Source: Leucoraja ocellata
Lineage: Eukaryota
Direction of reading: 5' to 3'
DNA: 64,000 nucleotides
Assembly (NCBI GenBank): GCA_036785375.1
Contig: JAWMAR010000562.1
Coordinates: forward strand, 868,001-932,000
The number at the start of each line of letters is the position of its first letter. Position 1 is the first letter of the stretch. Shown here piece by piece: positions 4,368 to 51,310 of the stretch. A program made the translations under genes and the position numbers. The notes under the pieces were generated by a model that saw nothing but the letters and a program-made list of their open reading frames with translations, was not told the origin of the DNA and did no database searches.

Positions 4368-4462
4368 CTGAAGAAGGGTCTCGACCCGAAACGTTACCTA
4401 TTCCTTTTCTCCAGAGATGCTGTCTGACCGGTTGAGTTACTCCAGCTTTTTGTGTCTTTCTT
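4368..4462 (+). mobile_element. Penelope terminal-repeat remnant with minimal hammerhead motif
   Basis: CTGAAGA-AGGGTCTCGACCC-GAAAC-GTT, then 'ccagagatgctg...gagttactccagc'. Homologous to the 3' end of the Penelope at 51175-51310. Confidence 0.8.
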
Positions 4463-4807
4463 TCTTGATGGAGCTGGCCACTGCCATTAAGTGCCGTCCA
4501 CAGTCCGTAAACTCCGGCCTTTTCAAGGGTCACGTTCAGAGTGACTATCTCTGACTCTCTGTGCACTTCAGCTGGTTAGCTGGGTCCGAACATCGACTAA
4601 GTTTCAACAGGTATAGTGTGAAGACCCCAGCCTGACATGGTCAACAGTTTGGCCTTGACTGAAGGCAAAGCTATGGGACGAGCATTGGCTTTCTGCCAAA
4701 GCAGCCATAGATTCCCTTATTCCCATACAAACGTTATTCCCTTATCATCTATCTAAACGCTGTAAATGGCCCGATTGTAATTATGTATTGTCTTTCCGCT
4801 GACTGAC

Positions 4808-5237
4808 ACTTGGGCTTGTACACTCTGGAGTTTAGAAGGAAGAGAGGAGATCTCATTGAAACATATAAGATTGTTAAGGGTTTGGACACGCCAGAGGCAG
4901 GAAACATGTTCCCGATGTTGGGGGAGTCCAGAATTAGGGGCCACAGTTTAAGAATAAGGAGTAAGCCATTTAGAACGGAGACGAGGAAACACTTTTTCTC
5001 ACAGAGAGTGGTGAGTCTGTGGAATTCTTTGCCTCAGAGGGCCGCGGAGGCAGGTTCTCTGGATGCTTTCAAGAGAGAGCTAGATAGGGCTCTTAAAGAT
5101 AGCAGAGTCAGGGGATATGGGGGAGAGGGCAGGAACGGGGTACTGATTGGGGATGATCAGCCATGATCACATTGAATGGCGGTGCTGGCTCGAAGGGCCG
5201 AATGGCCTACTCCTGCACCTATTGTCTATTGTCTATT
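4808..5237 (+). mobile_element. CR1 3' fragment nested in a Rex1/Babar-like LINE tail (~4720-5300)
   Basis: ORF 4810-5166 reads LYTLEFRR..HFFSQRVVSLWNSLP, with a (ctattgt)n tail. In copy 2 it is flanked by a 'gcaaca' direct repeat. Confidence 0.85.
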
Positions 5238-5811
5238 GCAACAAAAAGCTTTTCACTGTATCTCGGTACACATGACAATAAACTAAACTGAACTGAACTG
5301 AAAGACGCTAACAATTTTAAATAATTTTGACTTTTGGAAACTTCTAAAAATATATATATATATTTTTTTCCCCATTTCAAGTCCGTGGGCAGCTGCCGAT
5401 TAAAAAAAAATTTTTTTTATTTTAAATGGAATAAATTAATTAAACAAAATCAATTAAACACATGAAATAATTTGAAAATAATTAAAAATATAAAATTACA
5501 CCAAAATAATAAAAAAGGAAAATATCTTTCCCTTTGCCTCCTGAGCAGGTGTAAAACATCAATTTATTCAGCAGGATTTTGGATCTCCTGCTATGTCTGA
5601 CATGCAAAACGTGAAAGGAAATTCTCTTAACATTCTCTTAATGCTGGAATGTCACAGCGAGGCTAAACCTACTGCTGGGCTCCATGTGGAGTCCAACAAA
5701 GGAATGTGGTGCTTGTGAACCTGTCAGCAAGGTCACAGTGAGAGCGTTGAGCATTTTCCCCAGTTCACATGGTCACCACAAACACCAAGGTTCAGCTCAT
5801 TCTGAACTGAG

Positions 5812-6290
5812 GGCGGCATGGTTACCATGCCCCTGGAGACCTCGGTTCAGAAGCCTGACTACGGGTGTTCTGTGGTGCCATGTGAATGTGAGGGGAACAT
5901 GCTCAACGCTCTCACTGTGACCTGCGTGGGTTTTCTCTGAGATCTTCGGTTTACTCCCACACTCCAAAGACGTACAGGTTTGTAGGTTAAATGGCTTGGT
6001 GTAAAAGCAAAATTATCCCTAGTGCATGTAGGATAGTGTTCTTATCGAGTCCACACACACAAGATTAGAAGTTGTTCAGCCAGAGCTGAACACACTTCTC
6101 GGCATCTGCACACAATGGTGTCTGTCTTGTGCTTCTTGTACGTGGTGGTGGATAGATTGGCGGAAACAGGGCCGCGACTTGAATGCCCTTGACTTGACCC
6201 TAGGATAGTGTTAATGTGCGGGATCGCTGGTCAGTGCGGACTCGGTGGGCCGAAGAACCTGTTTCCGCAATGTATCTCTAAACTAAACTC
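5812..6290 (+). mobile_element. V-SINE carrying a 160-bp insertion (6041-6200) with 12-bp TSD TAGGATAGTGTT
   Basis: SINE body and ctaaa tail. TSD at 6029-6040 and 6201-6212. Confidence 0.85.
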
Positions 6291-6299
6291 ATTCAACTC

Positions 6300-6402
6300 A
6301 TAGGTCTGAAGCAGGGTCTCGACCCGAAATGTCACCCATTCCTTCTCTCCGGAGATCCTGCCTGTCCCGCTAAGTTACTCAGCATTTTGTGTCTATCTTC
6401 AG
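6300..6402 (+). mobile_element. Penelope terminal-repeat remnant, degenerate hammerhead
   Basis: ATAGGT-CTGAAGC-AGGGTCTCGACCC-GAAATGTC-ACCCAT followed by terminal-repeat sequence. Confidence 0.75.
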
Positions 6403-6782
6403 CTCATTGCTTTCTTCACGGGTCTCAATATTGCTAGTTGGGGAAGGTGGAGCTAACACAAGCTGTGTTACTGACAAAAGTATGTCATGTCTGTTTGACT
6501 TGTTTGATGTGAGGTATTTCTGGGTTTATTAAAATACGCTTTACAGATGAATGAGAGTGGATGCGATTATTGAAGCAGGAAGGAATTGTTAACTTTTCTA
6601 CACTAGCCAGTCATCCTTCAACTTAACAATCGAGAGTTTAAAAGCATCTGACAAGTAAATGTGCTAACAGTGGGGAAAGTATTGAATCAACGGAGCTTTC
6701 AAATGCCCTTTCAGCGGTTAATAGTGCTCAATATAGACACACAAAGCTGTAGTAGCTCAGCGGGACAGGCGACATCACTGCA

Positions 6783-7056
6783 GAGATACAGCGCGGAAAC
6801 AGGCCCTTCGGCACGCTGAGTCCACACCTACCAGCGATCCCCGCACACTAAAACTATCCTACACACACTAGGGACAATTTTGCATTTACACCAAGCCAAT
6901 TAACCTACAAACCTGTACGCCTTTGGATTGTGGGAGGAAATTGAAGATCTCAGAGAAAACCCACGCAGGTCACGGGGAGAACGTACAAACTCCGTACAGA
7001 CAGCGCCCGTAGGCAGGATCGAACCCAGGTCTCCGGCGCTGCGCCACCGTGCCGCA
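6783..7056 (-). mobile_element. V-SINE (HE1-like)
   Basis: Reverse-complement head 'gcggcacggtggcgcagcg', B-box-like 'gggttcgatcc', and V-domain. Confidence 0.88.
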
Positions 7057-7299
7057 CTCAGTTTAGAATGAGCTGGACCGTGGTGTCTGTGGTGACCATT
7101 TGAACTGAGAAACATGCTCAATGCTCCCACTGTGACTTTGCTGACAGATTCACAGGCACCACATTCTTTTGTTGGACTCCACATGGAGTCCAGCATCAAT
7201 GATTGGGGGACAACGTGCCTTTAAAATGTGAAATATTAGAAGACCTCCAATCTGATGGCCCATATTTGGACAGGATTTGAAATGCAATCTTTGCACAAG

Positions 7300-7446
7300 A
7301 TTGTCTCCTCAGCCGCCCAAACAGTCATAGCGTCTCTTTCTGGTCACCGCTGGGTTTTCAACATGTTGAACATTTTCGGCGACCTGCAACGACCTGTGAC
7401 GGGTGCCGGCAGTTGCCGAAAAAGTTGCGTAAGTGGGACATGCCCT
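7300..7446. mobile_element. Half PIF/Harbinger-type MITE (right TIR only)
   Basis: Palindromic centre 'ttttcaacatgttgaa' and terminus 'agtgggacatgccct', shared with the MITEs at 14260 and 16699. Confidence 0.65.
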
Positions 7447-7830
7447 TAGGCAACACCTCCAACCCAAGTGGGTCATGTTGGTGAGAGATTCAATTTCAGA
7501 AGCTTAGTTCTCAGGGCAAGTCTGTAATGATTTTATATTTCACAAGATGTGTCAAGTTAAGACTCTTGCTTCACAGATTAGGTTCAGTTTTGGTTTTATG
7601 TCGGGCAGCAAGGTGCTGCATTAAATTAGGACCCTCATTGTTGCAATGTAGTGCCACAATTACAATGCCACATTGCCTGTATGGTCTGATTCTCTCTCCA
7701 TGTCTACGCTGGTTCATCTCCCTATCTCTCTCTCTGTCTCTGTAGCACTCTCCCTCTCCCTCTCTGTCTCTCTTTCTATTCACCACCCACCCCCCCACCT
7801 CCACCTCCACCACCCCACTATAATGCTAAA

Positions 7831-7933
7831 TTGGCCTATTTCCTTCGCTCCATAGATGCTGCCGCACCTGCTGAGTTTCTCCAGCATTTTTGTCTACCTT
7901 CGATTTTCCAGCATCTGCAGTTCCTTCTTAACC
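7831..7933 (+). mobile_element. Penelope terminal-repeat 3' fragment with TSD ATAATGCTAAA
   Basis: Direct repeat at 7820-7830 and 7934-7944. The sequence is homologous to the reverse complement of 51180-51277. Confidence 0.8.
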
Positions 7934-8379
7934 ATAATGCTAAACAGCTTGCTTGAAGAAAGTCATCCATGTCTTAAGATATAGACAGGGTTGTTCAGGG
8001 ATGCAATGAAGAGTTGCCATAACAAAGCAACTGTGATTGAAACAAATAGGGAGGCCCATCCATGATGGACACTGCTATCCCACCATGGACGGAGTTTCAC
8101 GATTCATTTCATGTTTATAAAGATGTTATTAAAAAAACAACCTCATTCTTTGGCCTCCAAACTTTAATCTCTGTTATAATACTTTTGTTATTGATAATGT
8201 CATACTTCTTCCCTTGGTTTTAACCCAAGATTACAAAATATTGTTTTGAACAAGTTCACGTCCCTGCATTTCCATTGACTGCCAACTCATGTAACCGGTT
8301 CTATCCACGAACATCCAAATTGTTGAATTCTTCATCTCTCAGTCATCCAGCTACTGTTTGAAGACTGATAATTGGGTTG

Positions 8380-8948
8380 GAGGATTGAGGGGTTGATTAG
8401 CGTGGGCAGTTGTGGGGCGGAAAGAGAGTGGGGAGGATGAGAGGGGCGTGGGGCGGGGGGGGGGGGGGGACAAGGTTCAGGAGTTGGGATACTGATGGTG
8501 GTGGAGCACTAACTGAGGGATGCGGATGGAGAATAGGGTGGGGATAAGGATAGGATGATGAGGTTAGTGATGGGGTGGGACACAGAGATGGGGGCGGGAG
8601 GGTGAATAATGAGGTCTGGGAGTTCAGATAGTGATGAGATGGGCACAAGGTGAGGGGGGATGAGACTGGAGAATGGGATAGTGATGAGGGTGGGGAGCAC
8701 GGCACAAACAAGGGTGAATGATGAGGCTTGGGGGTTGGGAAAGTGACCGGGTGGGCACCAACAGGCAGATAGGACTCAAGAATAGGGTGGGGATGAGGGT
8801 GGGATGATGAGAGTGATGGAGTGGGACCCAGAGCTGGGGGGATGAAGATGGAGAATAGGGTGTGGATTAGGATAGTGATCGGGTGGGACACAGAGCTGGG
8901 AGATTGAGGTGGAGAATAAGTCGGAGATGAGGGTAGCAAGATGAGATG
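8380..8948 (+). repeat. G/A-rich degenerate minisatellite
   Basis: Recurring blocks 'gatggagaatagggtg', 'gggtgggacacagag' and 'gatgatgag'. Similar sequence continues at 9250-9370 and 9849-9960. Confidence 0.7.
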
Positions 8949-8949
8949 A

Positions 8950-9245
8950 GTTTAGTTTAGTTTGGTTTAGAGATACAGCGCGGGCTGACCAGTGATCCCT
9001 GCACATTAACACTATCCTACACACTAGATGCTATTTTTACATTTTCTTTTAAAGCCAATTAACCTACAAATCTGTGCGTCTTTGGATTGTGGGAGGAAAG
9101 TGAAGGTTTTGGGAAAAACCCCACATAGGTCACGGGGAGAACGTACAAACTCCGTACATGCAGCCCCCGTAGTCGGGATCAAACCCGGATCTACGGCGCT
9201 GCATTCATTGTAAGGCAGCAACTCTACCGCTGCACCCATGTGCCA
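8950..9245 (-). mobile_element. V-SINE (HE1-like)
   Basis: (tttag)n tail, V-domain and tRNA-like head on the minus strand. Confidence 0.88.
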
Positions 9246-9370
9246 TAACCGTGAGTGATGGGGTGTGACGCAGGGCCGGGGGAATGAGGGTGAGCAGCAT
9301 TGGGATGGGGGTGGGGTAGATAATGCAGTGCAGATTGAGGACTGGGAGTCAGACTGTGCTGAGGGCAGGC

Positions 9371-9848
9371 TAGGGTTGCCAACATTGGGCTAATTGGTTT
9401 GTCCCATACGGGACCGCCCTTGTCCCGTATTTGGCTGCTACTACTCGGGTCCAGGAGACTGTCGGGTCGGAGGGCCGCGTCTGGCCCCGCCTCACCCATT
9501 CCGACGTAGTGCAGCCCATGGAGTGCAGCAGCAGCGCCTCGCCCGTGGCCCCGTCGGTCGGCAGGCCGGCCAGCTGTCCGACCTTCGGACCTTCGCTTAC
9601 CGCCAACACCACCGCCCCTCCTTCGTCGGTTCATGAGTTGGATGGTATGCTGGACTTTGCACGCGACATCGCGCGGGTCAAAACTCCTCAGCTGGCCCGC
9701 CGGCTGGGCTTTGTGTGCAGTCCAGCACCCGGGCCAACTCATCATTCTCCCAGCCACGGCCAAGTCGGTCAACGAATTGCCGTCGGGAATTTGTCCCTTG
9801 TTTTGACCTTTTCTTCCTTATTTGGGAGTGAGAAGGTTGGCAACCCTA
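9371..9848. mobile_element. Non-autonomous hAT-type DNA transposon (copy 54091-54568)
   Basis: 13-bp TIRs TAGGGTTGCCAAC / GTTGGCAACCCTA, an 8-bp TSD GGGCAGGC/GGGCAGGG (7/8 match), and a CpG-rich interior. Confidence 0.85.
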
Positions 9849-10585
9849 GGGCAGGGAGTGAGGCAGATAGTAGAATGGAGGATGAGCATAGGTTGGGAGA
9901 TGTTGAGGGTGAAGGTCGGGCATTGACAACAGCGGTATGTCAGTGATGGAGAGAAATGGGGGTCACCATGCAACGTTATGTCTGGCATGTGGCTGGAGGG
10001 AAATTGATGTCCCATATTCTTCGACAGATGCCAGGTCAAAGACAGGCCACTAACTAACAGTGATGTTGGCTTCAGTCCACTGTTTAAAACCCGATTCACT
10101 GTTCTCCTGGGCTATGTACGAGCAGCAGAATTTTACACAAGGTTGTCAAAGGAACACCATCTAACATCACTCAGACTGCTGAGTAGCCTTTGTATTGCTG
10201 TGCACCGCATACACAGAAGTGTTGGGAACAACATTCTCCTCTGTTGTCTGAAAATGATCCTCAAAACCCTGTGCTAAGTGGTCAGAAAGTGGTGGTCAAC
10301 AAACCACCTAATAATATGCAATGTGGCAGTTCAGATGACTGGTTATATTAGCACAAGATTTTCAGGTTATTATTAGGGTGAGTTGAGTGGGGACTAGATT
10401 AATTTTTCACTCACTACTTATGGTTAATATTCATGGACTAGTCAAGTTAAAAGAGCCATTTAATGTAACGATCTGTATTTGAGCACCAGGGTATTATGAT
10501 ACCTAGGTCTGCTGAGGTTTCTGCAAGTAATGCTTAAGAAATGTTTTCGTGTAGAACTGCATTACCATCCAGTACACGATGCCAT

Positions 10586-10599
10586 GTTGCCATGGTTAC
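10586..10599 (-). promoter_or_regulatory. RFX X-box motif (copy 55315-55328)
   Basis: Minus strand GTAACCATGGCAAC matches GTNRCC-N2-RGYAAC exactly. It lies in unique sequence that is nearly invariant between the two copies. Confidence 0.45.
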
Positions 10600-12065
10600 T
10601 CGACTCAAAGCTGCTCTCAGTGTGTGTGAAGATAAGGCCAGTTTCTATCTGACCTTACTGATACTCTAGTGCAACAAGGGAAAATTACACATCCCCACAA
10701 GCAGTGCTGTTAATATGTCTTCTTACCAGAGCCAATCTATCAGAGCTTGCCCACCGACAGGGCCCAAAACCCAGCTATCATTTAGCTGCAAACCTCAGGT
10801 CATGTTCATGTTGCTGCCATCATAAAGCTGAGAAATTCCACTCACGAAGCTTGATGGATTATTGGGCAGCGATTAGGATGTTGAATACTGAAGAGTTTTT
10901 TAATTTTGTTTTTAGCATGAAGCATCCAGAGGGATTTTAGCAGCTGCGTTTGTAATTGGTCACAAATCAGATTAATGATTCAACATTGAGTACGTGCATT
11001 TTAGGTCTGAATTCCAGCCTGATCTTCAAGCATTTAACTTAAAAACACAGCCACTGAATGTAAGCAACCTTAATACTCATGGTCATTGATACAATCCACG
11101 AATAATGTAAACGGCACATCTATCTGAAAGACATGGATATGCTGAGTTCAAGTAAATCACTTCTCCACTCTTAAAAAATCCTTGCTTTTACAGGATTTTA
11201 TCTGAACAAATTGCATAAGGGAATTGTGAACTTTCTCCCTGTTTATTTTTAATCAACCTGTTTCATCTTTCTTTTTTAAGAAAGCCTACTCCTTCTCTCC
11301 ATAGATGCTGCCTCACCCGCTGAGTCAGTTGCCTGAGTTTCTCCGGCAATTTCTGTCTACTTTCGAGAGTTCAAGGCCAACATGTTCCTGTTAGAGTGAA
11401 GGGTATAGCTGGAATAATTCAGAATATTGAGGTTACATTCAAGAAAAAGGAGGGAGTATAGGTGATGTAAGAGTACACCTCAGAGAGAAACCAGGGGGGG
11501 GGGGGGGGGGGGGGGGGGCTAAATGAGGACATGAGATAGCTTTTGCAGATCAGGCAAAGAGAATAATAAAAATTGTGTGAAGCATATGAAGATCATAAAG
11601 GTAACTTGGAAAATAATAGGTCCCCTTTAAAGATTTGATCCCGGTTTGATCCTGACCTTGGCTAATGACCAAGTTGGTTTCCTCTGGGTGCTCCAGTTTC
11701 CTCCCACATCTCAAAGACGTGCAGGTTTGTAGGTTAATTTCCCTCTGCAAATTGGCCCTAGTGTGTAGGGAGTGGGAGCTATAACACCAGGATAAGCGCT
11801 CAACTAAGAAAACCAAGCTCCAAGCCAAGGTACAATCTACACTGAATATTCGAACATGCTAAGGGCGATAACTAACTTCATATGCAGTAAACAGCTACCT
11901 ACATGTTTACAAGCTCATTAAAAACAAACTGACCTTGTAGATATCAAGTGGGCATCTCCCTTCACTGGTGTTTCGTTGAGTTAGGCCCACAACACCTCGG
12001 GAAGGATAACTAGTTAGTGTCAACATGATCTATTGGAAGTGAAATGTTTTATAATAGCATGTGGA

Positions 12066-12435
12066 GAGGATAGACAGAGTTGAATTGGACAAGCTTTTCC
12101 CTTTGAGAATAGGGAATAGGGAAGATTCAAACAAGAGGACATGACTTCAGAATTAAGGGACAGAAGTTTAGGGGTAATACGAGGGGGAACTTCTTTACTC
12201 AGAGAGTGGTAGCGGTGTGGAATGAGCTTCCAGTGGAAGTGGTGGAGGCAGGTTCATTGGTATCATTTAAGAATAAATTGGATAGGCATATGGATGAGAA
12301 GGGAATGGAGGGTTATGGTATGAGTGCAGGCAGGTGGGACTAAGGGGAAAAAAAGTTGTTCGGCACGGACTTGTAGGGCCGAGATGGCCTGTTTCCGTGC
12401 TGTAATTGTTATATGGTTATATGTCATATGGTTAT
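12066..12435 (+). mobile_element. 5'-truncated CR1/HER1-like LINE present only in copy 1
   Basis: Encodes RGH..GNFFTQRVVAVWNELP and ends in an (atatggtt)-type tail. TSD atgtgga/atgtgaa. Empty site 'gcatgtggacatttatag' at ~56781. Confidence 0.9.
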
Positions 12436-12769
12436 ATGTGAACATTTATAGTTATGAACACAGATACACTCATTTTGAATGTCACATTTTGTTGAGGAGA
12501 TGTATGTATTTAATATGATAGGGTGTATATCCACCAGCTGTCTGAAGGTTAGTAATTTGCTGTGACTTCAGAAATAGCCATATACAGATATCCCTCGTAG
12601 GAGTGGAGTGGTATCCATTATTGCCGATAGACAGCTCTAACTGAATAAGGGAGGGGTAAATATGTACAGTATTGGAAAAGCAACCACTAAATATTGACAC
12701 ACAATAAACAGGAATTGTCAAAAAACACATAATACTTAAAACATTGTAAATACATTTAAAAAAGTCAAA

Positions 12770-12893
12770 TAGACACAACATGCTGCAGTAACTCAGCAGG
12801 ACAGGCAACATCTTTAGAGAGAAGGAATGGGTAATGTTTCGGGTTGTGTCTATCTTCGGGTGAAAACCAGCATCTGCAGCTCGTTCCTTCACA
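12770..12893. mobile_element. Collapsed inverted pair of Penelope terminal-repeat remnants
   Basis: Minus arm 'agacacaacatgctgcagtaactcagc...gtttcggg' is fused to plus arm 'tgtgtctatcttc...cagcatctgcag'. Confidence 0.65.
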
Positions 12894-14259
12894 GGGGATT
12901 AAAGAATCCACATCTACAGACAAAAAGCTACACATGATACGGTGGCATAAATGGCACAAATATGATACATGGGGGAACTTAATGATTATGACCATTTAAA
13001 GGAGAGGTTCTTATTTATATGGAATGCTTGGATTGATCCTTCAAAGTCACCAATCAGCAGAACAAAATGCCGTGATCCAAGTGTGGAAGGAAGCAACTTT
13101 ATTAGTAAATGCAGGCTTGGCCACTTATGTGACACTATCTGGACCATCTGGAAAGATCATTGGAATGTTAAAAGCATACTTTAACCCAGCAGCAAATAAA
13201 ACCACATACTGGCCATCCCTGCGTTATAAACACCAGATTTAAGGACATCGTGACATACAATCAAACTCCCATAATATTCAAAACTCATACCAATGCAGAA
13301 CAAGTTCCCTTCTCACTCCCCATTTGATAATGATTATTCTTTCTTATCAGTTGCATGTGCTTTTGATACCATTCATTACAACACATGGAGGCATGGTAAC
13401 ATATTGAGTGATTTGTGTATATTTCCAACGCATGGAGAAAATCAAGTTATAGACGGATGTCTGTTCGTTACCAGGGGATGGCCTGTGTACACTGGTGCTT
13501 CTGTTAACGGCAATAAAGACATTTCATTTTCTTTTTATGTCGGGAGATGCTGCTGGGCTGAGATAAGATATAAATAACTGTGTGTTAAAGTTGTCTTTCG
13601 ATACAATAACTGTTAATGCAATCACTTGCCTGTTTGACATTTAGAAAGTCTGTGAACAATGACATGTGCATTGCGAGCTAAACTGCTAAATTGGAGGAGA
13701 TAAGAGGTTGTGGACAACTGTTCGCAGGTTGGGTATCTTCAGGAAGAACAGGGAGGCAAATGAGGGAGTGGAGAAACAGAAACAATTGAATGCAGACTTT
13801 TTGTTTGTAGAACAAGATAATTGTGGGATGTCAGACTGACGACCGGGAATTTAGACTGAATGTAATCAGGACATTTTCTGCCACATTTGAGAAGACAGAC
13901 CATGATCAAGAGAAAATAGCAAGAAATCGTTTAAATGTAACTTGTCCCTAGTGTGTGTAGGATAGTGTTAATGTGCGAGTATCGCTGGTCGGTGCAGGAA
14001 CACAGATTCCATTGCTAAGAGATAACTTAACACCATTGTTAATACTTGTATATCTATCTACTTCGTGCAGATGGATTAACACATCAGCAAAGAGAAATAG
14101 ATCTTGCAGAGGTGGGCTGAGGTTTTCACCTAACGTGTCCTAAATTGACCGCTTACAATTCAGTGTCATAATTATCAGGTGTGAAAGCTCCAGAAGCAGA
14201 TGTTATACCAACTAAAGATCTTATACCAACTAAAGTCTTCAAAGAAGGGACTCGCTTTA

Positions 14260-14594
14260 AGGGCCTGTCCCACTGTACGAGGTAATTCAAGAGTTCTCCC
14301 GAGTTTCTCCTAATTCAAACTCGGAGAATTACGGTAATAGCCGCTCGTAGGTACTCGGGGCTCTCGTGGACATTTTTCAACATGTTGAACATGTTGAACA
14401 TGTTGAAAAATCTTCACAAGTCCTCACGAGCTTACCGCGTTTCCTGAATACCTGCCGTTAGCGTTACGAGCCGCTGAGAGACGTCCCAAGCTCCAACGTA
14501 CCTGCTACGTACATTCTACGTACTTACCACGAGTTTGATTTTTGTTTAAACTGGGGAGAGCTCTTGGATTACCTCGTACAGTGGGACAGGCCCT
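14260..14594. mobile_element. PIF/Harbinger-type MITE (copy 58689-59028, right TIR clipped)
   Basis: ~47-bp TIRs starting AGGGCCTGTCCCACTGTACGAGGTAAT, with TTA TSD at 14257-14259 and 14595-14597. Confidence 0.9.
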
Positions 14595-14597
14595 TTA

Positions 14598-22157: not shown

Positions 22158-22929
22158 GAAAAATCTCTGGAGAAAAGAAATCGGTGATGATTTGGGTCAA
22201 GACCTTTCTTCAGACATCCCTGTTATTCTGATTGTGTTTTATCTTCAATCCATAGTAACACACGTCCTTTTGTACCGTGAGCTCTTGTGCACCTTTGCCC
22301 AAGGTTTTCACTAGGGCCTTCTCTAGCTGCTCTCAATATGATATCAGCTCACTCCTCCTACAATATTGTTGCCACAGTTGCCTTAGAACCCAAACCTTCC
22401 CAAATAATTTTAACTACCAAAACTACTGAAGCTTTTCACTGTGCTTCGGTGCCACATGTGACAATAGATTAAACTAAACCAAATTACCAGAACACACTCT
22501 GGGATGATCTGATCTCGTGAAATCTAGCACAGGTTTGAAGGTATCATTTTGCTTTGTTTTCAATGGACTTCGGCAACTAACAGGTAAAATGTTTAGCAAT
22601 GGACAGCTTCTGATTCGCTAGCCAAGACTACACGAGGACTAACATGAGCACGTCAGCTGTGATTAACCACAATTAACCAAGCTTTACCAAAGGATAATAA
22701 ATCAGCTTTCTTTTGACAGTTTCCAACTTCATTTTTAGCCACAGCTGCTGCCATAATTATACTGATTAGTCACACTAAATTATTTTCTAAAAAGCTAATT
22801 ACCACTGGACATCATCCGTCATCAGCTCTGTTGGGGAGGAGGAATGTGCCACCCTTTCTGAAATTAATTTGTTTTTAAAATCCTGTTTGCAAAATAAATA
22901 TCCGGAAAGACATTCACTTCATATTCAAC

Positions 22930-24065: not shown

Positions 24066-24420
24066 CTGACTTGGTTTTCCAACACAGCGAGATGTCCAGA
24101 AGGGCATGTTACTGATAGTCCTGGTCCAGACTGCAGGAGTGTATGCTGAAGGATGCACGGAAGCTCGGTGCAGCTAATGAGAAACGAAGGCGACAGAGGG
24201 GAAAGATGGTTTTGGGGAAGACCACAGTCTCGGGTCCTTCCGCTGCTGGACATTGAGGGGCTGAGTCTGTGGGGATACCCCTCAACCAAATGAAGGGGCA
24301 TCACCCCAGGGGACCACATGAGTGGCTCAGGTGCTTGGGCCAGCACTGCCGAGTGTGACACTAACACTATTGAATGTAGAGAAACTAAGAATGTACTGAG
24401 AGATTTTGTTCTGTGTAGAA
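24066..24420 (+). mobile_element. Tx1/L1-clade LINE 3' fragment
   Basis: Frameshifted LVFQHSEMS..SRLQECMLKDARKLGAAN..GKTTV, which resembles the Tx1 ORF2 C-terminus (recognised from memory). Confidence 0.55.
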
Positions 24421-24893
24421 GATAAGACACTGGAGTAACTCAGTAGGACAGGCGGCATCTCTGAAGAGAAGGAATGGGTGAGGTTTTGGGTCGAGACCCT
24501 TCTTCAGTTGAATAAGAAGACCTTGAACGTCACCCATTCCTTCTCGCCAGAGACGCTGCCTGTCCCGCTGAGTTACTCCAGCATTTTGTGTCCATCTTTT
24601 TTTACACGGAGAGTGGTGAATCTGTGGAATTCTGAACTTCAGAAGGTAGTTGAGGCCAGTTCATTGGCTATATTTAAGAGGGAGTTAGATGTGGCCCTTG
24701 TGGCTAAAGGGATCAGGGGGTATGGAGAGAAGGCACGTACAGGATACTGAGTTGGATGATCAGCCATGATCATATTGAATGTCGGTGCAGGCTCGAGGGG
24801 CCGAATGGCCTACTCCTGCACCTATGCTCTATGTTTCTATGTCTATGTTTCTATCTTCACGGTAAACCAGCATCTGCAGTTCCATCCTACACA
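24421..24893. mobile_element. Inverted Penelope terminal-repeat pair with a CR1 3' fragment (~24597-24850) inserted in the right arm
   Basis: Minus arm 24421-24507 and plus arm 24526-24596. The plus arm resumes at 'tatcttcacggtaaaccagcatctgcagttcc' after the CR1 tail. Confidence 0.75.
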
Positions 24894-26685: not shown

Positions 26686-27170
26686 GTAACATGGATAAGG
26701 GAGAGCCAGTGGATGTAGTGTACCTGGACTTTCAGAAAGCCTTTGATAAGGTCCCACATACGAAATTAGTGGGCAAAATCAGAGCACATGGTATTGGGGG
26801 TAGGGTATTGACATGGATGGAAAATTGGTTGGCAGACAGGAAACAAAGAGTAGGAATTAACGGTTCCCTTTCAGAATGGCAGGCAGTGACTAGTGGGGTG
26901 CCTCAAGGCTCGGTGCTGGGACTGCAGCTATTCACAATATATATATATTAATGATTTAGATGAAGGACTTAAAAGCAACATTAGCAAATTTGCGGATGAC
27001 ACAAACCTGGATGGCAGTGTGAACTGTGAAGAGGATGCTATGAGGATGTAGGGTGACTTTGATAGGTTGGGTGAGTGGGAAGATCCATGGCAGATGCAGT
27101 ATAATGTGGATAAATGCGAGGTTATCCCATTAGTGGCAAGAACAAGAGGCAGAATATCATATGAATGGCA
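26686..27170 (+). mobile_element. CR1 RT-domain fragment
   Basis: YLDFQKAFDKVPH..GVPQGSVLG..FADD, with a frameshift and a stop. Confidence 0.9.
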
Positions 27171-28900
27171 GGTAAACACAAAATGCTGGAGTAACTCAGC
27201 GGGTCAGGCAGCATCACTGGAGCAAAGGAATGGGTGACGCTTTGGGTCGAGACCGTTCTTCTGTATGGTGTCAGATAAAACCAGAAAATGGTGGAAATAC
27301 AGTTAGCGTCTGTGGAGAAAGAAACAGAGTTTAACATTTTTGGTCGATGGCCCTTCATCAGAGCTGGTAAAAATAGAAACCCGCATTGTTAAGGGAGGGA
27401 TGGATATTTACGAAGGAATGGAAATGTTAATAATTACTGTAGGTGGAAACCAAGTGTAACTTAAGACACACATGGTGTTGCTGGCAGTGAGAGAGTGGGG
27501 AAAGCCTGTTAATTGCAACTGAGCAGTCTGGAGGAGATGTAGATAGGGATCTTAAAGTTATGGGGATATGGGGAGAAGGCAGGAACGGGGTACTGGTTGT
27601 GGATGATCAGCCATGATCACATTGAATGGCGGTGCTGGCTCGAAGGGTCGAATGGCCGACTCCTGCCATTGTCTATTGTCTAAATCGACAGAGATGAATG
27701 AGTATGGAGGAGAGACAAAAAAAGTACATGGATTATGTGATAAAATGTGTGCATTTGCTGCAGTCTGATATGAAGGAATGGTGGAATTCTCAAGCTTTGA
27801 AAATAGAAAAAATTGAATTTACATTGCATGTCAGTGGCCTTTCATTAGCCCTCTTTTGTCTTCTGGATCAGAAGTGGCCAGTTCCCTCACAAACAGGAAT
27901 GGCTGGCTATCTGAAATGGAAGAGTCCTGAGGACAGTATTATATTTCACCAGACCATAACAATGTGTCAATTGAGCTGGCGTTAGACTTCATTGGCAGAG
28001 TGCAGGAGGTCAAAGGCTTTATGACATTTCCTTTTTCATAACTATCAAAACAATTCCACAGTCAAATGACACATAGGATCTGGTTCAGAAATGTAAAAAG
28101 AAACCAATATTATATAAACACAATCATTAATAACACACCAGTTTACAAAAGATTAATATGAATTGCTCTTGTCCATCATTATAACAGTTAGGACACTTAG
28201 CTCATTTGTTTTAAACAGGAAAACTAATGTTATTAATTTAATGGACAAAGTAATTAGGCTCATCCATATTAACATTTAGCATTCAGAGGTTTACATTTTT
28301 TCAATGCCCTTTGGGTTTTTTGCACAGTTAGGTTTGCAATCCAGTAGAAAACTATTCACTGGTAAATTAAAAGCAAATTGCAACAAAGCTATCAAACACT
28401 TTCCACTCTCAAGGTGGCAGTACCTCTTGCATCGTAATAGTTATCTTGTGTAAGCTAATTAGAAAATAGCAAGAATACAAGGGGGGTATTAAGGGAGGCT
28501 CACTGATTTTCATGTGCACTGTGTTTTACTTTCCAGACCGTTGTCAGAGTTTCAACACTTAGAAACATAGAAACATAGAAACATAGAAAGTAGGTGCGAG
28601 AGTAGACCACCAGGTCCGTCGAGCCCGCACCGCCATTCGCTCATGGCTGAACACTAAACAGACACACTTACCCACAAACAGTAGACACAAGACACAGAAC
28701 ACAAGACACTACCCTCCCCTTTATACCGCTATCACCCCTCTCCACCCCAAGAACCTCGTGATCTCCTGGGGGAGGCAAAAAAACGGATAAAAACCCAGGT
28801 CCAATTCGGGAAAAAAAAATGGGAAATTCCTCTCCGACCCCAATCCAGGCGATCGACACTTGTCCAGGAGATCACTCAGGTCTTACTATACTAACCATAC

Positions 28901-36224: not shown

Positions 36225-36287
36225 CCACAAGCCATTAGTAGGCTGCTCGCCAAGCCACTACACAAATTAAGCCCCAGACTCCAACGC

Positions 36288-38218: not shown

Positions 38219-40881
38219 GAAAGGAAGGACATTAGCTTGGAGGATGTAGAATTGATATGGGTAGAGCTGCGAAACACTAAGGGGCAGAAAACGCTAGTGG
38301 GAGTTGTGTACAGGCTACCCACCAGTAGTAGTGAAGTTGGAGATGGCATCAAACAGGAAATTAGAAATGCGTGCAACAAAGGTAAAACAATTATAATGGG
38401 TGACTTCAATCTACATATAGATTGGGTGAATCAAATTGGCAGGGGTGCTGAGGAAGAGGACTTCTTGGAATGTATGCGGGATAGTTTTCTAAACCAACAT
38501 GTAGAGGAACCAACGAGAGAGCAGGCTATTCTAGACTGGGTATTGAGTAATGAGGAAGGGTTAGTTAGCAGTCTTGTTGTGCGTGGCCCCTTGGACAAGA
38601 GTGACCATAATATGGTTGAGGTCTTCATTAGGATGGAGAGTGACATTGTTAATTCAGAAACAAAGGTTCTGAACTGAAAGAAAGGTGACTTTGAGGGTAT
38701 GAGACGTGAATTGGCCAAGATAGACTGGCAAATGATTCTTAAAGGGTTGACGGTGGATATGCAATGGAAGGCATTTAAAGACTGCATGGATGAACTACAA
38801 CAATTTTTCATCCCAGTTTGGAAAAATAATAAATCAGGGAAGGTAGTGCATCCGTGGATAACAAGGGAAATCAGGGATAGTATCAAAACAAAATATGAAG
38901 CGTACAAATTAGCCAGAAAAAGCAGCCACAAGAGGACTGGGAGAAATTCAGTCCAGCAGAGGAGGATAAAAGGCTTAATTAGGAAAGGGAAAATAGATTA
39001 TGAAAGAAAACTGGCAGGGAACATAAAAATTGACTGCAAAAGTTTTTATAGATATGCAAAGAGGAAAAGATTAGTTAAAACAAATGTAGGTCCCTTGCAG
39101 TCAGAAACAGGCAAATTGATCATGGGGAACAAGGACATGGCAGACCAATTGAATAACTACTTTTGTTCTGTCTTCACTAAGGAAGACATAAATAATCTGC
39201 CGGAAATAGCAAATAGACCGGGGGTTAAATGAGATGGAGGAACTGAGTGAAATCCAGGTTAGCCGGGAAGTGGTGTTAGGTAAATTGAATGGATTAAAGG
39301 CCGATAAATCCCCAGGGCCAGATAAGTTGCATCCCAGAGTACTTAAGGAAGTAACCGCAGAAATAGTGGATGCATTAGTGATCATTTTTCAAAATTCTTT
39401 AGATTCTGGAGTAGTTCCTGAGGACTGGAGGGTAGCAAACGTAACCAAACTTTTTAAAAAGGGAGGGAGATAGAAAACGGGGAATTACAGACCAGTTAGT
39501 CTAACATCGGTGGTGGGAAAAATTCTGGAGTCAGTTATTAAAGATGGGATAGCAGCGCATTTGGAAAGTGGTGAATTCATTGGACAAAGTCAGCATGGAT
39601 TTATGAAAGGTAAATTATGTCTGACGAATCTTATAGAATTTTTCAAGGATTTAACTAGTAGAGTGGATAAGGGAGAACCAGTGGATGTGTTGTATCTGGA
39701 CTTTCAGAAGGCTTTCAACAAGGTCCCACACAAGAGATTTGTATGCAAACTGAAAGCACACAGTAATGGGGGGTTCAGTATTGATGTGGATAAAGAACTG
39801 GCTGACAGACAGGAAGCAAAGAGTAGGAGTAAACAGGTCCTTTTCAGAATGGCAGGCAGTGACTAGTGGGGTACCGCAAGGCTCAGTGCTGGGACCCCAG
39901 CTATTTACAATATATATTAATGATCTGGATGAGGGAATTGAATGCAACATTTCCAAGTTTGCAGATGACACGAAGCTGGGGGGCAGTGTTAGCTGTGAGG
40001 AGGATGCTAGGAGGCTGCAAGGTGACTTGGATAGGTTGGGTGAGTGGGCAAATGCATGGCAGATGCAGTATAATGTGGATAAATGTGAGGTTATCCACTT
40101 TGGCGGCAAAAACAGGAAAGTAGACTATTATCTGAATGGTGGCCGATTAGGAAAAGGGGAGATGCAGCGAGACCTGGGTGTCATGGTACACCAGTCATTG
40201 AAAGTAGGAATGCAGGTGCAGCAGGCTGTGAAGAAAGCAAATGATATGTTAGCATTCATAGCAAAAGGATTTGAGTATAAGAGCAGGGAGGTTCTACTGC
40301 AATTGTACAGGGTCTTGGTGAGACCACACCTGGAGTATTGCGTACAGTTTGGGTCTCCTAATCTGAGGAAAGACATTCTTGCCATAGAGGGAGTACAGAG
40401 AAGGTTCACCAGACTGATTCCTGGGATGGCAGGACTTTCATATGAAGAAAGACTGGATAGACTTGGCTTGTACACGCTAGAATTTAGAAGATTGAGGGGG
40501 GATCTTATAGAAATTTACAAAATTCTTAAAGGTTTGGACAGGCTAGATGCAGGAAGATTATTCCCGATGTTGGGGAAGTCCAGAACACAGTTTAAGGATA
40601 AGAGGGAAGTCTTTTAGGACCGAGATGAGAAAATCATTTTTTACACAGAGAGTGGTGAATCTCTGGAATTCTCTGCCACAGAAGGTAGTTGAGGCCAGCT
40701 CATTGGCTATATTTAAGAGGGGGTTAGATGTGGCCCTTGTGGCTAAAGGGATCAGGGAGTATGGGGAGAAGGTAGGGATGGGATACTGAGTTGGATGATC
40801 AGCCATGATCATATCGAATGGCGGTGCAGGCTCGAAAGGCCGAATGGCCTACTCCTGCACCTATTTTCTATGTTTCTATGA

Positions 40882-41123
40882 AAGAACTGCAGATGCTGGT
40901 CTAAACTGAAGGTAGACACCCAAAGCTGGAGTAATTCAGCGGGACAGGCAGCATCTCTGGAGAGAAGAAATAGGCAACATTTGTGTCGAGACCCTTCTTC
41001 AGAATGGTACGAACCAGTCTGGACCTGTCTGACGAAGGGTCTCAACCCAAAACGTCATCCATTTCTTCTCTCCAGAGATGCTGCCTATCCCGCTGAGTTA
41101 CTCCAGCTTCTTGTGTCTATCTT
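40882..41123. mobile_element. Head-to-head inverted Penelope terminal-repeat pair with degenerate hammerheads on both strands
   Basis: Minus arm 40882-41003, a ~23-nt spacer, and a plus arm from 41027 (CTGACGA-AGGGTCTCAACCC-AAAACGTC). Confidence 0.8.
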
Positions 41124-41871
41124 ATCTTTCCTAGCTCCATCTCTGCGTTTTGTACCTGTGTGGACCACAAAACTCCATCTTTCCTCTTGCTCTCCAAGTT
41201 GATCTCAAACCAAACGGAAATGTCCTCAACCCTGACACGCAGCCTTTGATGTGTCTGATGCCTATGGGATTCAACAAGGCTGGACTGTACCCCTTTGCTG
41301 CGCCATTCATCATACCCGTACAATTTCATTTCTAGGGCACTTTCTTTACTTGGGAAATGCATGATTTGTTGCTATGGAAATAGCTTTAAGCATGCAAAGC
41401 ACATTTGAAATCCACCAAACAGCATTTAATGCGTTCTAAAATCAAATGTTAAGGAGTATTTACCGTGACCTACTTGGATTCCTAGTATTTCTCGCTGTTT
41501 CACAATACAGTGCATGCTAAATTTAAAAGCACCCTGACATAAATAATAGTTTTACAATGCAGTTAATCAAATAAATACGTGAATAATGTTAAGTGATCTG
41601 ACTTCAATCACCTTTTTGCTAAGTTCTAGACAATAGTATTTTAATAAGTGAATGATTGCAACAAGTAAAATCAACACGCATTTACGAGTCCACTCAGTGT
41701 TCCCACGTTGACAACCTGCGGATATTAAAACGTATTTGTGTACAGAATGATATGCACTCCTGAAAAATAAATCCAGCTGGTTGGAAGGATTTCAAACTCC
41801 ACAACAGCATTGCAGACAAAAATCAACATATTGCTCGGTCAAAAACATTGTTGCATATGCAAAGATAAAAC

Positions 41872-46400: not shown

Positions 46401-49400
46401 TGCGGAGGTTGGACTGGTGGATGGAGAGGAGACCGGCTGATATGGATCTGAGGGACCGTGAGGGTTGGTAGGGGGAGAGGAGAGGTTAGGCATTGGTCCT
46501 TTTTTATATGCCCTTAAAGCCGAGAATCCGATATGTTTTATTAGCCTCGTCATTAACCTGGCCAGTCACCTTTACAGATTGGTGAACATCACCAGATCTC
46601 TCTCTTTCAACAAGCCCTGTAAAATTATACCATTTATATCTTCATAAATTGAACTTTTCTTCTTCTGCCGATCATTAGATCGTATTCATAAAGGTTGAGT
46701 AGATCACCACAATCTATGTTTTTTTTTGTTTTAAATTCGAGAACCATAAAGGCTGGCATTGTTGAACCAATTAACGCAAACTGTATTCAAGCATAATCAC
46801 GATTTATTTATTTAAGGCAACATTTTGAATTAAGCTGTATAAATATATCCCGTGTGACAGGAGATGAAAAAGGCTCATCAGGTTTTCTTGAAACTTCACT
46901 GAGCAACATGATTAATGTGAAGAAGTTAATTATAATTCAATAGAACCATAAATATAAGTCAATGCTCCAGTAATTTAAGACTCAATGCTTGTCAATGAAA
47001 GGAGATGATGCAGGTACAATTCAGAACAGCTGATCCCAAATAAAAAGATTCTAATTAATAATGACCTACTACTTAAGGTGACAATTACTTTACAAATTCT
47101 TAAGGTGTTTGGAATTCTGCAAATGATTCTAAACTCTGCTCCTGGCCTCAATGGAATTGGTGAATCAATGAGATTTAACCTCAGAGCCAGACCCAATGTT
47201 CGCACATGGGAGGATCACTTTGATCGGACTAATTCCATGACCCTGCCAGTGGGGATAACTGACCTTTGACCTGGACAGGAAAGTTGTGTGGCCCATAACC
47301 GCATATTTTCATACGTATCTGGGTCTGTTAGCTGGTAATCGATGTGAGCGGAGAGATATTACTACGCTAACGTAGTTATATAAGATGATATCTCATGACT
47401 TGGGCAGCACCTTTGCCGACTGTTCATCGATCGATTGTCTTGCTGAGGTGCTAAGTATTGAATCTGCAACCTCCATCTGCTGGAGGTGAATTTACACAGA
47501 GGTTGGAATTGGAGCATCCATTGTAAATTGTATTGTAGCCATGTACTTTCATACACCTTTCAATATTGCAAGTCATATACCAATTTGTTGCCTCCCACAG
47601 TGTTTTCTACTCTCTCCATTAGACAAGGCTTTATTTCTAATTGATGTCTGAAGAATGGTCTCGACCCGAAACGTTACCTATTCCTTTTTTCCAGAGATGC
47701 TGTCTGACTGGTTGAGTTACTCCAGGTTTTTGTGTCTTTCTTTCTTGATGGAGCTGGCCACTGCCATTCAGTGCTGTCCACAGTCCGTAAACTCCGGCCT
47801 TTTCAAGGGTCACGTTCAGAGTGACTATCTCTGACTCTCTGTGCACTTCAGCTGGTTAGCTGGGTCTGAACATCGACTAAGTTTCAACAGGTAGTGTGAA
47901 GACCCCAGCCTGACATGGTCAACAGTTTGGCCTTGACTGAAGGCAAAGCTATGGGACGAGCATTGGCTTTCTGCCAAAGCAGCCATAGATTCCCTTATTC
48001 CCATACAAACGTTATTCCCTTATCATCTATCTAAACACTGTAAATGGCCCGATTGTAATTATGTATTGTCTTTCCGCTGACTGGATAGCACGCAACACTT
48101 GGGCTTGTACACTCTGGAGTTTAGAAGGGGATCTCATTGAAACATGTAAGATTGTTAAGGGTTTTGACACGCTAGAGGCAGGAAACATGTTCCCGATGTT
48201 GGGGGAGTCCAGAACTAGGGGCCACAGTTTAAGAATAAGGAGTAAGCCATTTAGAACGGAGACGAGGAAACACTTTTTCTCACAGAGAGTGGTGAGTCTG
48301 TGGAATTCTCTGCCTCAGAGGGCCGTGGAGGCGGGTTCTCTGGATGCTTTCAAGAGAGAGTTAGATAGGGCTCTTAAAAATAGCAGTCAGGGGATATGGG
48401 GGAGAGGGCAGGAACGGGGTACTGATTGGGGATGATCAGCCATGATCACATTGAATGGCGGTGCTGGCTCGAAGGGCCGAATGGCCTACTCCTGCACCTA
48501 TTGTCTATTGTCTATTGCAACAAAAAGCTTTTCACTGTATCTCGGTACACATGACAATAAACTAAACTGAACTGAACTGAAAGACGCTAACAATTTTAAA
48601 TAATTTTGACTTTTGGAGACATCTAAAAATATATATTTTTTTTTTTCCCCCATTTCAAGTCCGTGGGCAGCTGCCGATTGTTTAAAATTTTTTTATTTTA
48701 AATGGAATAAATTAATTAAACAAAATCAATTAAACACATGAAATAATTTGAAAATAATTAAAAATATAAAATTAAACCAAAATAATAAAAAAAGGAAAAT
48801 ATCTTTCCCTTTGCCTCCTGAGCAGGTGTAAAATATCAATTTATTCAGCAGGATTTTGGATCTCCTGCTAGGTCTGACATGCAAAACATGAAAGGAAATT
48901 CTCTTAACATTCTCTTAATGCTGGAATGTCACAGCGAGGCTAAACCTACTGCTGGGCTCCATGTGGAGTCCAACAAAGGAATGTGGTGCCTGTGAACCTG
49001 TCAGCAAGGTCACAGTGAGAGCGTTGAGCATTTTCCCCAGTTCACATGGTCACCATAAACACCAAGGTTCAGCTCATTCTGAACTGAGGGTGGCACGGTA
49101 GCGCAGCGGTAGAGTTGCTGCCTTACAGCGCTGGAGACCCGGGTTCGACCCTGACTACGGGTGCTGTCTGTGCGGAGTTTGTACGTTCTCTCTGTGACCT
49201 GCGTGGGTTTTCTCTGAGATCTTTACTCCCACACTCCAAAGACGTACAGGTTTGTAGGTTAAATGGCTTGGTGTAAAAGCAAAATGATCCCTAGTGTGTG
49301 TAGGATAGTGTTCTTCTTATCGAGTCCACACACACAAGATTAGAAGTTGTTCAGCCAGAGCTGAACACACTTCTCGGCATCTGCACACAATGGTGTCTGT

Positions 49401-51275
49401 CTTGTACGTGGTGGTGGATAGATTGGCGGAAACAGGGCCGCGACTTGAATGCCCTTGACTTGACCCTAGGATAGTGTTAATGTATGGGATCGCTGGTCGG
49501 TGCGGACTCGGTGGGCCAAAGAGCCTGTTTCCGCAATGTATCTCTAAACTAATTTCATTCAATTCATAAGTCTGAAGCAGGGTCTCAACCCGAAATGTCA
49601 CCCATTCCATCTCTCCGGAGATCCTGCCTGTCCCGCTAATTTACTCAGCATTTTGTGTCTATCTTCAGCTCATTGCTTTCTTCACGGGTCTCAATATTGC
49701 TAGTTGGGGAAGGTGGAGCTAACACAAGCTGTGTTACTGACAAAAGTATGTCATGTCTGTTTGACTTGTTTGATGTGAGGTATTTCTGGGTTTAATCAAA
49801 TACGCTTTACAGATGAATGAGATTGGATGCGATTATTGAAGCAGGAAGGAATTGTTAACTTTTCTACACTAGCCAGTCATCCTTCAACTTAACAATCGAG
49901 AGTTTAAAAGCATCTGACAAGTAAATGTGCTAACAGTGGGGACAGTATTGAATCAACGGAGCTTTCAAATGCCTTTTCAGCGGTTAATAGTGCTCAATAT
50001 AGACACACAAAGCTGTAGTAGCTCAGCGGGACAGGCGACATCACTGCAGAGATACAGCGCGGAAACAGGCCCTTTGGCACGCTGAGTCCGCACCGACCAG
50101 CGATCCCCGCACACTGACACTATCCTACACACACTAGGAACAATTTTGCATTTACACCAAGCCAATTAACCTACAAACCTGTACGCCTTTGGATTGTGGG
50201 AGGAAATTGAAGATCTTAGAGAAAACCCACGCAGGTCACGGGGAGAACGTACAAACTCCGTACAGACAGCACCCGTAGACAGGATCGAACCCGGGTCTCC
50301 GGCGCTGCGCCACCGTGCCGCACTCAATTTAGAATGAGCTGGACCGTGGTGTCTGTGGTGACCATTTGAACTGAGAAAAATGCTCAACGCTCCCACTGTG
50401 ACTTTGCTGACAGATTCACAGGCACCACATTCTTTTGTTGGACTCCACATGGAGTCCAACATCAATGATTGGGGGACAACGTGCCTTTAAAATGTGAAAT
50501 ATTAGAAGACCTCCAATTTGATGGCCCATATTTGGACAGGATTTGAAATGCAATCTTTGCACAAGATTGTCTCCTCAGTCGCCCAAAGAGTCATAGCGTC
50601 TCTTTCTGGTCACCGCTGGATTTTCAACATGTTGAACATTTTCGGCGACCTGCAACGACCTATGACGGGTGCCGGCAGTTGCCGAAAAAGTTGCGTAAGT
50701 GGGACATGCCCTTAGGCAACACCTCCAACCCAAGTGGGTCATGTTGGTGAGAGATTCAATGTCAGAAGCTTAGTTCTCAGGGCAAGTCTGTAATGATTTT
50801 AGATTTCACAAGATGTGTCAAGTTAAGACTCTTGCTTCACAGATTAGGTTCAGTTTTGGTTTTATGTTGGGCAGCAAGGTGCTGCATTAAATTAGGACCC
50901 TCATTGTTGCAATGTAGTGCCACAATTACAATGCCATGGTATGGTCTGATTCTCTCTCCATGTCTACGCTGGTCCATCTCCCTATCTCCCTCTCTGTCTC
51001 TCTTTCTATTCACCCCCTCCCCACCTCTACCACCCCACTATAATGCTAAACAGATTGGCCTATTTCCTTTGTTCCATAGATGCTGCCGCACCTGCTGAGT
51101 TTCTCCAGCATTTTTGTCTACCTTCGATTTTCCAGCATCTGCAGTTCCTTCTTAACCATAATGCTAAACAGCTTATTGTTTAAGAGGGAACTGCAGATGC
51201 TGGAAAATCGAAGGTTACACAAAAAAGCTGGAGAAACTCAGCGGGTGCAGCAGCATCTATGGAGCGAAGGAAATA

Positions 51276-51310
51276 GGCAACGTTTCGGGCCGAAACCCTT
51301 CTTCAGACTG
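51276..51310 (-). ncRNA. Minimal type I hammerhead ribozyme motif in the Penelope 3' terminal repeat
   Basis: RNA CAGU-CUGAAGA-A-GGGU(UUCG)GCCC-GAAAC-GUU-GCC has an intact core, a UUCG-capped stem II and a palindromic AACGUU stem III. Stem I is weak. Confidence 0.7.

Follow-up and report, generated by a model that had tools for sequence, protein, structure and literature searches.

A minimal hammerhead ribozyme at the 3′ end of a Penelope-like element in Leucoraja ocellata and its dispersed, probably inert short copies

A hammerhead-like motif recurs about ten times, on both strands, in a 64,000-nt stretch of Leucoraja ocellata DNA (GenBank assembly GCA_036785375.1, contig JAWMAR010000562.1, positions 868,001 to 932,000; hereafter the window, numbered from its first letter), and in one place it lies close behind the open reading frame (ORF) of a Penelope-like element (PLE). 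How did one small ribozyme motif come to be scattered so densely, and can the scattered copies still cut? A preliminary description, made from the letters alone, took the sites for ribozymes in remnants of Penelope terminal repeats and for a sample of a very large genomic reservoir. We consider it probable that a PLE whose linker is of the Neptune/Nematis type bears this motif, a minimal hammerhead ribozyme (min-HHR), at its 3′ end, and that short insertions of that end, likely made by reverse transcription of uncut RNA, account for the scattered copies, which are likely inert now.

The parent is represented by a 5′-truncated insertion at 51175..52655 on the minus strand, comprising the 3′ part of the ORF, a pyrimidine-rich 3′ untranslated region (UTR), the min-HHR and a tail. 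Its ORF fragment (51423..52655, minus strand; 410 aa without the stop) contains reverse transcriptase (RT) motifs, a C-x4-C-x2-C linker (CGRRRCNTC at residue 277) between RT and endonuclease, and a GIY-YIG endonuclease C-terminal to the RT. The fragment is 54% identical over 99% of its length to proteins with RT and GIY-YIG, its top language-model matches score 0.97, and the pattern of linker plus GIY-YIG is present in 80 of 120 homologs; the only Pfam match was to GIY-YIG and did not reach the Pfam cut-off (E = 0.0024). A CX2-5CxxC linker is described as a feature of Neptune and Nematis (PMC8557442). Judged by its ORF, then, the parent is an endonuclease-bearing (EN+) PLE with a linker of the Neptune/Nematis type. 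The 11-bp target-site duplication (TSD) CTAAACAGCTT stands at 51164-51174 and 52656-52666, and the empty site is found at 7940-7950 in a duplicated block, so the insertion is young. The preliminary placement of a hammerhead (51276-51310, minus strand) downstream of the Penelope ORF is borne out, in that the motif begins 116 nt after the stop and inside this one TSD-bounded insertion.

The intact min-HHR of this insertion (51277..51308, minus strand; predicted cut between 51279 and 51278) has a 2-bp stem I and is built from CUGAAGA (51306-51300), an extra A, stem II GGGU/UUCG/GCCC (51298-51287), GAAA, CG and UU, a layout that agrees with the published consensus. Identity as a hammerhead is settled, at the level of sequence comparison, by the relatives. 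Of 87 related loci, 50 were dropped for lacking the ORF end or the 350 nt after it; among the 37 kept, the motif was found within 600 nt after the ORF match in 20 (13 without core mismatch) and gave no match in 17, and in 19 of the 20 it lay 83-131 nt from the ORF end. Strict matches on the antisense strand or in the ORF numbered zero, and antisense matches at one mismatch numbered two. For covariation we aligned 15 related loci with the two intact window copies (17 rows), leaving out L016, L074 and L082-L084 (three identical or near-identical to kept rows, L074 divergent). Across these rows 86.7% of cells pair, against 17-46% for slid partners, and six of eight pairs change on both sides, including all four of stem I, which had not been selected for, stem II having been part of the search. 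The covariation score was reached by none of 500 shuffles, a count that is not a probability, as many rows are related. Inside the window, none of six pairs among 12 rows changes on both sides, the only changes being U-A/U-G swaps; the covariation in stems I and II whose absence the preliminary description would have taken as a refutation is thus lacking within the window and present across related PLE families. Motif, position and covariation together uphold the assignment: a minimal type I hammerhead of the Penelope kind, whose helix III is the palindrome ACGU and which belongs with the 3′ end of a PLE ORF.

As monomers, both intact copies have a minimum-energy fold other than the hammerhead, and the ACGU self-duplex is worth only -1.7 kcal/mol. 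An Rfam scan of the window listed no hammerhead family among its eight matches at E up to 1; Rfam hammerhead models expect fuller helices. The eight were microRNA-type matches at 51108-51228, all below gathering score, and were discarded as products of the inverted repeat of two insertions. Five related loci (L070 and L081-L084) have in common a CCGACGA core (U4>C) with otherwise intact stems, possibly a tolerated core variant. Penelope-like ORFs also occur in two bacterial metagenome-assembled genomes (MAGs) of GTDB (L081-L085 on CBDDTI01 contigs, L086-L087 on JABSON01 contigs), most likely animal host DNA binned into MAGs. The tail pattern had no match in viral or metagenome contigs, and no PLE relative was seen in viral contigs.

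All ten sites first noted proved to be recognisable copies, each a repeat of about 100 nt with the hammerhead-like motif at its head. They are not chance matches, since a strict descriptor of core and stem II (CUGANGA, 4-bp stem II, GAAA, UH) matched twice in the window against a mean of 0.085 and a maximum of 1 in 200 dinucleotide shuffles, and nhmmer gave E-values of 1e-26 to 1e-32 for the long copies (with a model from eight window copies, which fit by construction). The motif as originally written, however, is intact only at 4368(+) and 51306(-); at each of the other eight the CUGANGA, GAAA or stem II boxes are broken, through loss of a core residue or of the G10.1-C11.1 pair. The count of ten needs a similar correction, as a segmental duplication of about 19 kb (mean identity 97.4%) makes 47648 and 49572 the counterparts of 4368 and 6306, which leaves eight independent sites. 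The two intact copies, 47 kb apart on opposite strands, share A as the extra nucleotide after A9, the CG palindrome and UU at the cut, and H17 is U or C in all eight dispersed copies scored.

Taken singly, the solo copy at 4367..4464(+) keeps core and stem II, and its duplicate (47647..47744, +) has G10.1>U and a 6-bp TSD, TTGATG, abutting both ends. The solo copy at 6303..6402(+), with a likely 5-nt TSD CTCAT, and its duplicate (49569..49668, +) carry A9>C and CG>TG. Two head-to-head inverted pairs occur: at 40877..41129, a minus-strand copy at 41002 (tail present, G12 absent, CG>TG) faces 41029(+) with G12>A, and at 24414..24603, 24507(-) with G12>A and CG>CC faces 24519(+), a partial copy that begins inside stem II. 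The solo copy 27263 (27161..27264, minus strand) is decayed (U4>A, G10.1>C, G12>A, A15.1>G), and the decayed 27361 (27305..27362, minus strand) belongs to a different and likely older family with one copy in the window. Besides 24519, we add to the preliminary description a copy at 22213(-) (22162..22215; decayed, G12>A, 3′ side cut short), the pair 12859/57206(-) (a decayed solo copy at 12759..12859 with an inverted tail fragment before it; paralog 57106-57209), core-less copies at 7831/51054(+), 11284/56013(+) and 6786/50052(-), and a tail fragment at 24867. Nearest same-strand pairs contain at most one intact core, and within 3.5 kb of any copy there is no intact partner on its strand. The window showed no tandem array of the short unit with a complete HHR in consecutive units.

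Stem I is short throughout. The 6-bp ancestral stem I earlier proposed from an upstream ATAGGT and a downstream ACCTAT does not hold, its 5′ arm being partly target-site DNA: the ATA (6300-6302) falls within the left flank CTCATA, which returns as CTCATT right after the element, and the paralog at 49569 reads ATAAGT upstream. In the ORF-linked copy at 51306, with TCAGT upstream, two contiguous pairs form and three more lie beyond a 2x2 loop; the stem is 1 bp at 4368 and 0-3 contiguous bp among dispersed copies, against 3-6 bp in 17 of 20 relatives. Cases with a 2-bp helix I are present in published Fig. S3 (PMC4209133).

If "remnants" is to mean eroded elements, the word is wrong for these copies. 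At 47648 the 6-bp TSD abuts the nucleotide before the core, at 51054-51157 a 14-bp TSD abuts the copy and at 6306 a 5-nt TSD is likely; these are thus discrete short insertions, although for most older window copies no TSD was found. Eight independent window copies begin within a few nucleotides of C3, with unrelated DNA upstream.

Sequencing reads place the same boundary in a much larger family. Four public runs were aligned to 51166-51525 at 82% likeness; family matches came to 87,343 and 107,866 contigs, and RNA reads of the family to 8,962 of 7,335,232 in X22 and 24,417 of 17,596,208 in X24. The family is thus very abundant, but a large functional reservoir is not supported. Depth in X22 was 5,211, 4,781 and 4,300 across the cut site and 3,289, 463 and 68 across the core head (51298-51333), with the head at 8.6 times the depth of the ORF end, and loose ends of low agreement (0.32-0.34) with unrelated flanks peaked at 51308/51309 in X1, X4 and X22. 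Most family copies end 2-6 nt before C3, at TCAGTCT, and not at the cut site. On the other side, the segment 3′ of the cut (51175..51278, minus strand) has two end points about 35 nt apart, marked by depth steps and loose ends at 51177 and 51216-51219, with copy ends 69 and 104 nt after the cut; it would comprise an optional tail and the predicted region of RT starts. The predicted cut site was not among the loose ends listed, nor was a pile-up of read starts or ends, which is uninformative in a high-copy repeat. At 51272 loose ends also peak, but with an agreement of 0.67-0.74 and letters that continue the element, which points to a 1-nt subfamily indel and not to cutting. Strand bias in X24 was not taken as a sign of expression, since its reading depends on the library chemistry.

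What, then, sets the main boundary? The initiator consensus is YYANWYY, and TCAGTCT (51305..51311, minus strand; loose ends at 51308-51312, depth drop) fits it, resembling also a YAG 3′ splice site. Initiators have been reported in other PLE pseudo-long terminal repeats (pLTRs). We lean slightly toward the view that the boundary 2-6 nt before C3 is the 5′ end of an RNA begun at this initiator-like sequence. A cap-derived extra G can mark an RNA 5′ end. Read on the element strand, the loose sequence opens with G in four of four low-agreement rows, but among window copies only 6306 has this G; for cap-derived G at copy starts this is a hint only, and a literature search turned up no passage on such a G. 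In a related locus an inverted copy (L058:1403-1486, minus strand) also starts 3 nt before the core, as a single case.

On this basis the copies could have arisen as follows. The RT would prime at nicked DNA and begin copying at an internal point of the RNA, some 69 or 104 nt past the cut, as the copy ends and the Anolis element discussed below suggest. Because cutting would part core from tail, copies that hold both would derive from uncut RNA, and they are likely complete cDNAs. Once inserted, the copies retain no more than 2-3 bp of stem I and lack an intact copy nearby to pair with, while G12 and the CG palindrome decay, for the most part through substitutions of the CpG type. Cleavage would be confined to RNA of the source element, where, going by the literature, it would proceed in a dimer via ACGU, probably aided by PLE protein, and would trim tandem or read-through transcripts.

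Decay after insertion can be followed in the eight independent dispersed copies, of which five have lost G12 (four G>A, one deleted) and five the CG palindrome, both of these being CpG sites in the intact motif. At non-CpG positions the core changed in 5 of 80 cells and the tail in 46 of 440 (p = 0.31); this test omits G12, where the majority letter is A, and the G12 counts were taken from the per-copy rows. Selection on copies after insertion left no clear sign in these small numbers, and with most copies mutated at essential positions they are likely inert, to judge from their letters.

Several points weigh against the account of short insertions copied from uncut RNA that begins at an initiator. 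The runs come from coded organisms, possibly not the window's species, and the loose ends described are six per run, with 1,449 more beside them. The depth drop upstream of the core is partly due to subfamilies with a 3′ UTR too different to pass the 82% threshold, the loose ends at 51311/51312 (agreement 0.42-0.64) are partly UTRs of other subfamilies that keep TCAGT, and an initiator-like motif stands at -3 in only 3 of 20 invertebrate-type relatives. When the right-hand duplicates are used, the core looks a little better conserved, with 4 of 80 cells changed as compared with 52 of 440 in the tail (p = 0.08). Lastly, G12>A occurs in four copies and C11.1>T in none of eight, where plain CpG decay predicts both, so that G12>A may have been inherited from source copies.

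An extension of this account, possible but doubtful in our estimate, has the copy junctions record two kinds of RNA end: transcription would start 3 nt before the core, yielding an mRNA with a barely formed ribozyme and, from it, the mass of solo insertions, and a minority copied from self-cleaved RNA would begin at the cut site. Two independent core-less window insertions do begin at about N1.1. The older short copy at 51054..51157(+), whose paralog at 7831..7933(+) has an 11-bp TSD and lies next to the PLE empty site, starts within a few nucleotides of the predicted cut, with three or four extra letters in front, so that its end falls between -2 and +1; together with the young Penelope insertion it makes up an inverted repeat. 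The other, at 11284..11367(+) (paralog 56013-56095), starts exactly at N1.1, but it is preceded by AAGAAA and no TSD was found, so that a small deletion is possible. These starts, noticed post hoc and with no read-depth step at that position, are a weak hint of cleavage in vivo.

We regard it as rather unlikely that the short unit is instead a non-autonomous family, SINE-like (short interspersed element) or retrozyme-like, with solo copies as the source of its spread and with a dead core (G12>A) in some of its masters. Such a family would suit the fact that loop II and N1.1 of the common solo type are unlike those of the ORF-linked copy, the recurrence of G12>A in four copies without a matching C>T, and the reported derivation of retrozymes from pLTRs (preprint 10.64898/2026.07.22.740005). 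Yet the window holds no tandem array of the unit, and reads join the common type to a pyrimidine-rich UTR (the loose end behind 51311, X24), so that it likely has ORF-bearing parents.

Splicing as the source of the boundary we hold to be improbable. The pyrimidine tract and the CAG followed directly by TCTGAAG would here form a 3′ splice site, as in Drosophila Penelope, whose intron is described as ending at helix I (PMC4209133, PMC2377424), and in the spliced RNA an upstream exon would supply another stem I, which might be longer. A C/U-rich tract and CAG do stand directly before U2.1, at 51310-51308, and TCAGT is retained in the subfamily UTRs seen as loose ends. But the loose ends at 51308/51309 share no upstream exon (the agreement of 0.32-0.34 given above), no GT-AG skip ends there among the 15 joints listed (with 170 more beside them), the TSD of 47648 directly abuts the boundary, and in 20 of 20 relatives there is no YAG within 16 nt of C3.

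Erosion or random 5′ truncation, with the boundary merely marking where a fast-changing C-rich UTR stops aligning, seems less probable again. PLE copies are known as heavily 5′-truncated (PMC8557442), the UTR differs between subfamilies, and most older window copies have no recognised TSD; against this speak the shared start near C3 of eight independent copies with unrelated upstream DNA, the abutting TSDs at 47648 and probably 6306, and the 8.6-fold head depth in X22. That the dispersed copies are a large reservoir of working ribozymes cutting host RNAs, as monomers or as trans dimers, is hardly credible, for although 4368 keeps the whole core, stem II and palindrome and the abundance of the family in X22 and X24 reads could make trans partners plentiful, only one of the eight independent dispersed copies is intact, stem I has 0-3 bp, no two-sided covariation occurs in the window, no pile-up of read starts or ends was listed (a weak point in a repeat), and published min-HHR monomers were uncleaved and dimers cleaved poorly (PMC4209133).

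The system has close precedents. Metazoan PLE min-HHRs (Cervera and De la Pena 2014, PMC4209133) are described with the same CUGANGA, single extra nucleotide, G10.1-C11.1, GAAA, CG palindrome and UH, and likewise as lying in the pLTR, mostly as single dispersed motifs; the 2-bp stem I and 4-bp stem II found here are at the short end of the Fig. S3 rows. That paper counts thousands of min-HHRs in a genome, with about 4,000 for coelacanth and 9,000 for Xenopus, and reports no cleavage of monomers and low cleavage of dimers; one of its supplement files contains no shark or skate term, and another may list more species. The Poseidon PLE of Anolis (Frangieh et al. 2024, PMC11167929) shares an HHR upstream of two internal RT starts that give an optional tail, but is of a different clade, the ORF here bearing the C-x4-C-x2-C linker, and its ORF is said to start in stem II, whereas here the first ATG after the motif lies downstream of the cut. 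For Anolis that study reports that the RNA was cleaved only when protein was present, that the template used in vitro was predominantly uncut RNA, and that no RNA-seq reads ended where the ribozyme cuts. In the window subfamily at 51068-51160(+) and 7844-7936(+), the ATG behind the cut begins a frame that runs the full length of the tail, MLPHLLSFSSIF..., and could be the ORF start; other copies carry stops, and comparison of the homolog N-terminus with this frame found no match.

With Neptune and Nematis EN+ PLEs (Craig et al. 2021, PMC8557442; Arkhipova et al. 2013, PMC3846280) the element has in common the C-terminal GIY-YIG, the CX2-5CxxC linker, 5′ truncation and TSDs, as well as head-to-head inverted pLTRs, a tail of 30-40 bp and solo pLTRs; the window's only ORF-bearing copy is truncated, and its assignment is by linker type, which does not tell Neptune from Nematis. 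Non-LTR retrozymes (Li et al. 2026, 10.64898/2026.07.22.740005) are similarly short non-coding type I HHR units from pLTRs, with dispersed monomers described, but are defined by tandem units each with a complete HHR, of which the window has none; they are reported in the preprint's one chondrichthyan. A search mostly outside subscription journals found no paper that has PLE hammerheads of sharks or skates as its subject, and none on whether the 5′ ends of copies cluster. Both the min-HHRs of PLEs and the solo copies scattered from them have been known since 2014, and ours is a new example of a described kind; the new detail is that some short copies have their own TSDs.

The surroundings are rich in other repeats. 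The segmental duplication is in tandem (1-19570 against 43270-64000, offset 43-45 kb, blocks 96.4-99.4% identical), with two N gaps between the blocks, and could be two haplotypes assembled in tandem, in which case the Penelope insertion would be polymorphic. At 51040-51278 the young Penelope insertion entered the TSD of the older short copy in the opposite direction, producing a tail-to-tail hairpin and suggesting a target preference next to earlier copies. The Penelope tail ends at 24867-24893 and 40877-40900 directly abut (CTATGTTT)-type 3′ repeats of copies of SINEs and long interspersed elements (LINEs), a hint of insertion preference for such simple repeats. A LINE at 28901-31906(-) and 31882-32322(-), which we take to be CR1/L2-like, has an uninterrupted 1001-aa ORF2 with endonuclease and RT and, upstream, part of a GDSL esterase-like ORF1, and looks potentially intact up to an N gap at 32970. 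An LTR retrotransposon at 35247-38218(+), apparently inside a plus-strand LINE, has an integrase ORF and 186-bp LTRs that are 98.9% identical; neither of its two ORFs showed an RT domain.

The role of PLE ribozymes has been called unclear (PMC8557442). With a family this numerous, DNA by itself allows one to count how often past template RNAs began at the start site and how often at the cut site; if a minority of copies was indeed taken from self-cleaved RNA, genome-wide junction counts would provide in vivo evidence that Penelope hammerheads cut, which RNA-seq data failed to yield in Anolis. The presence of both an empty and a filled site shows that the family moved recently, and a live element for biochemistry is thus probably present in this genome.

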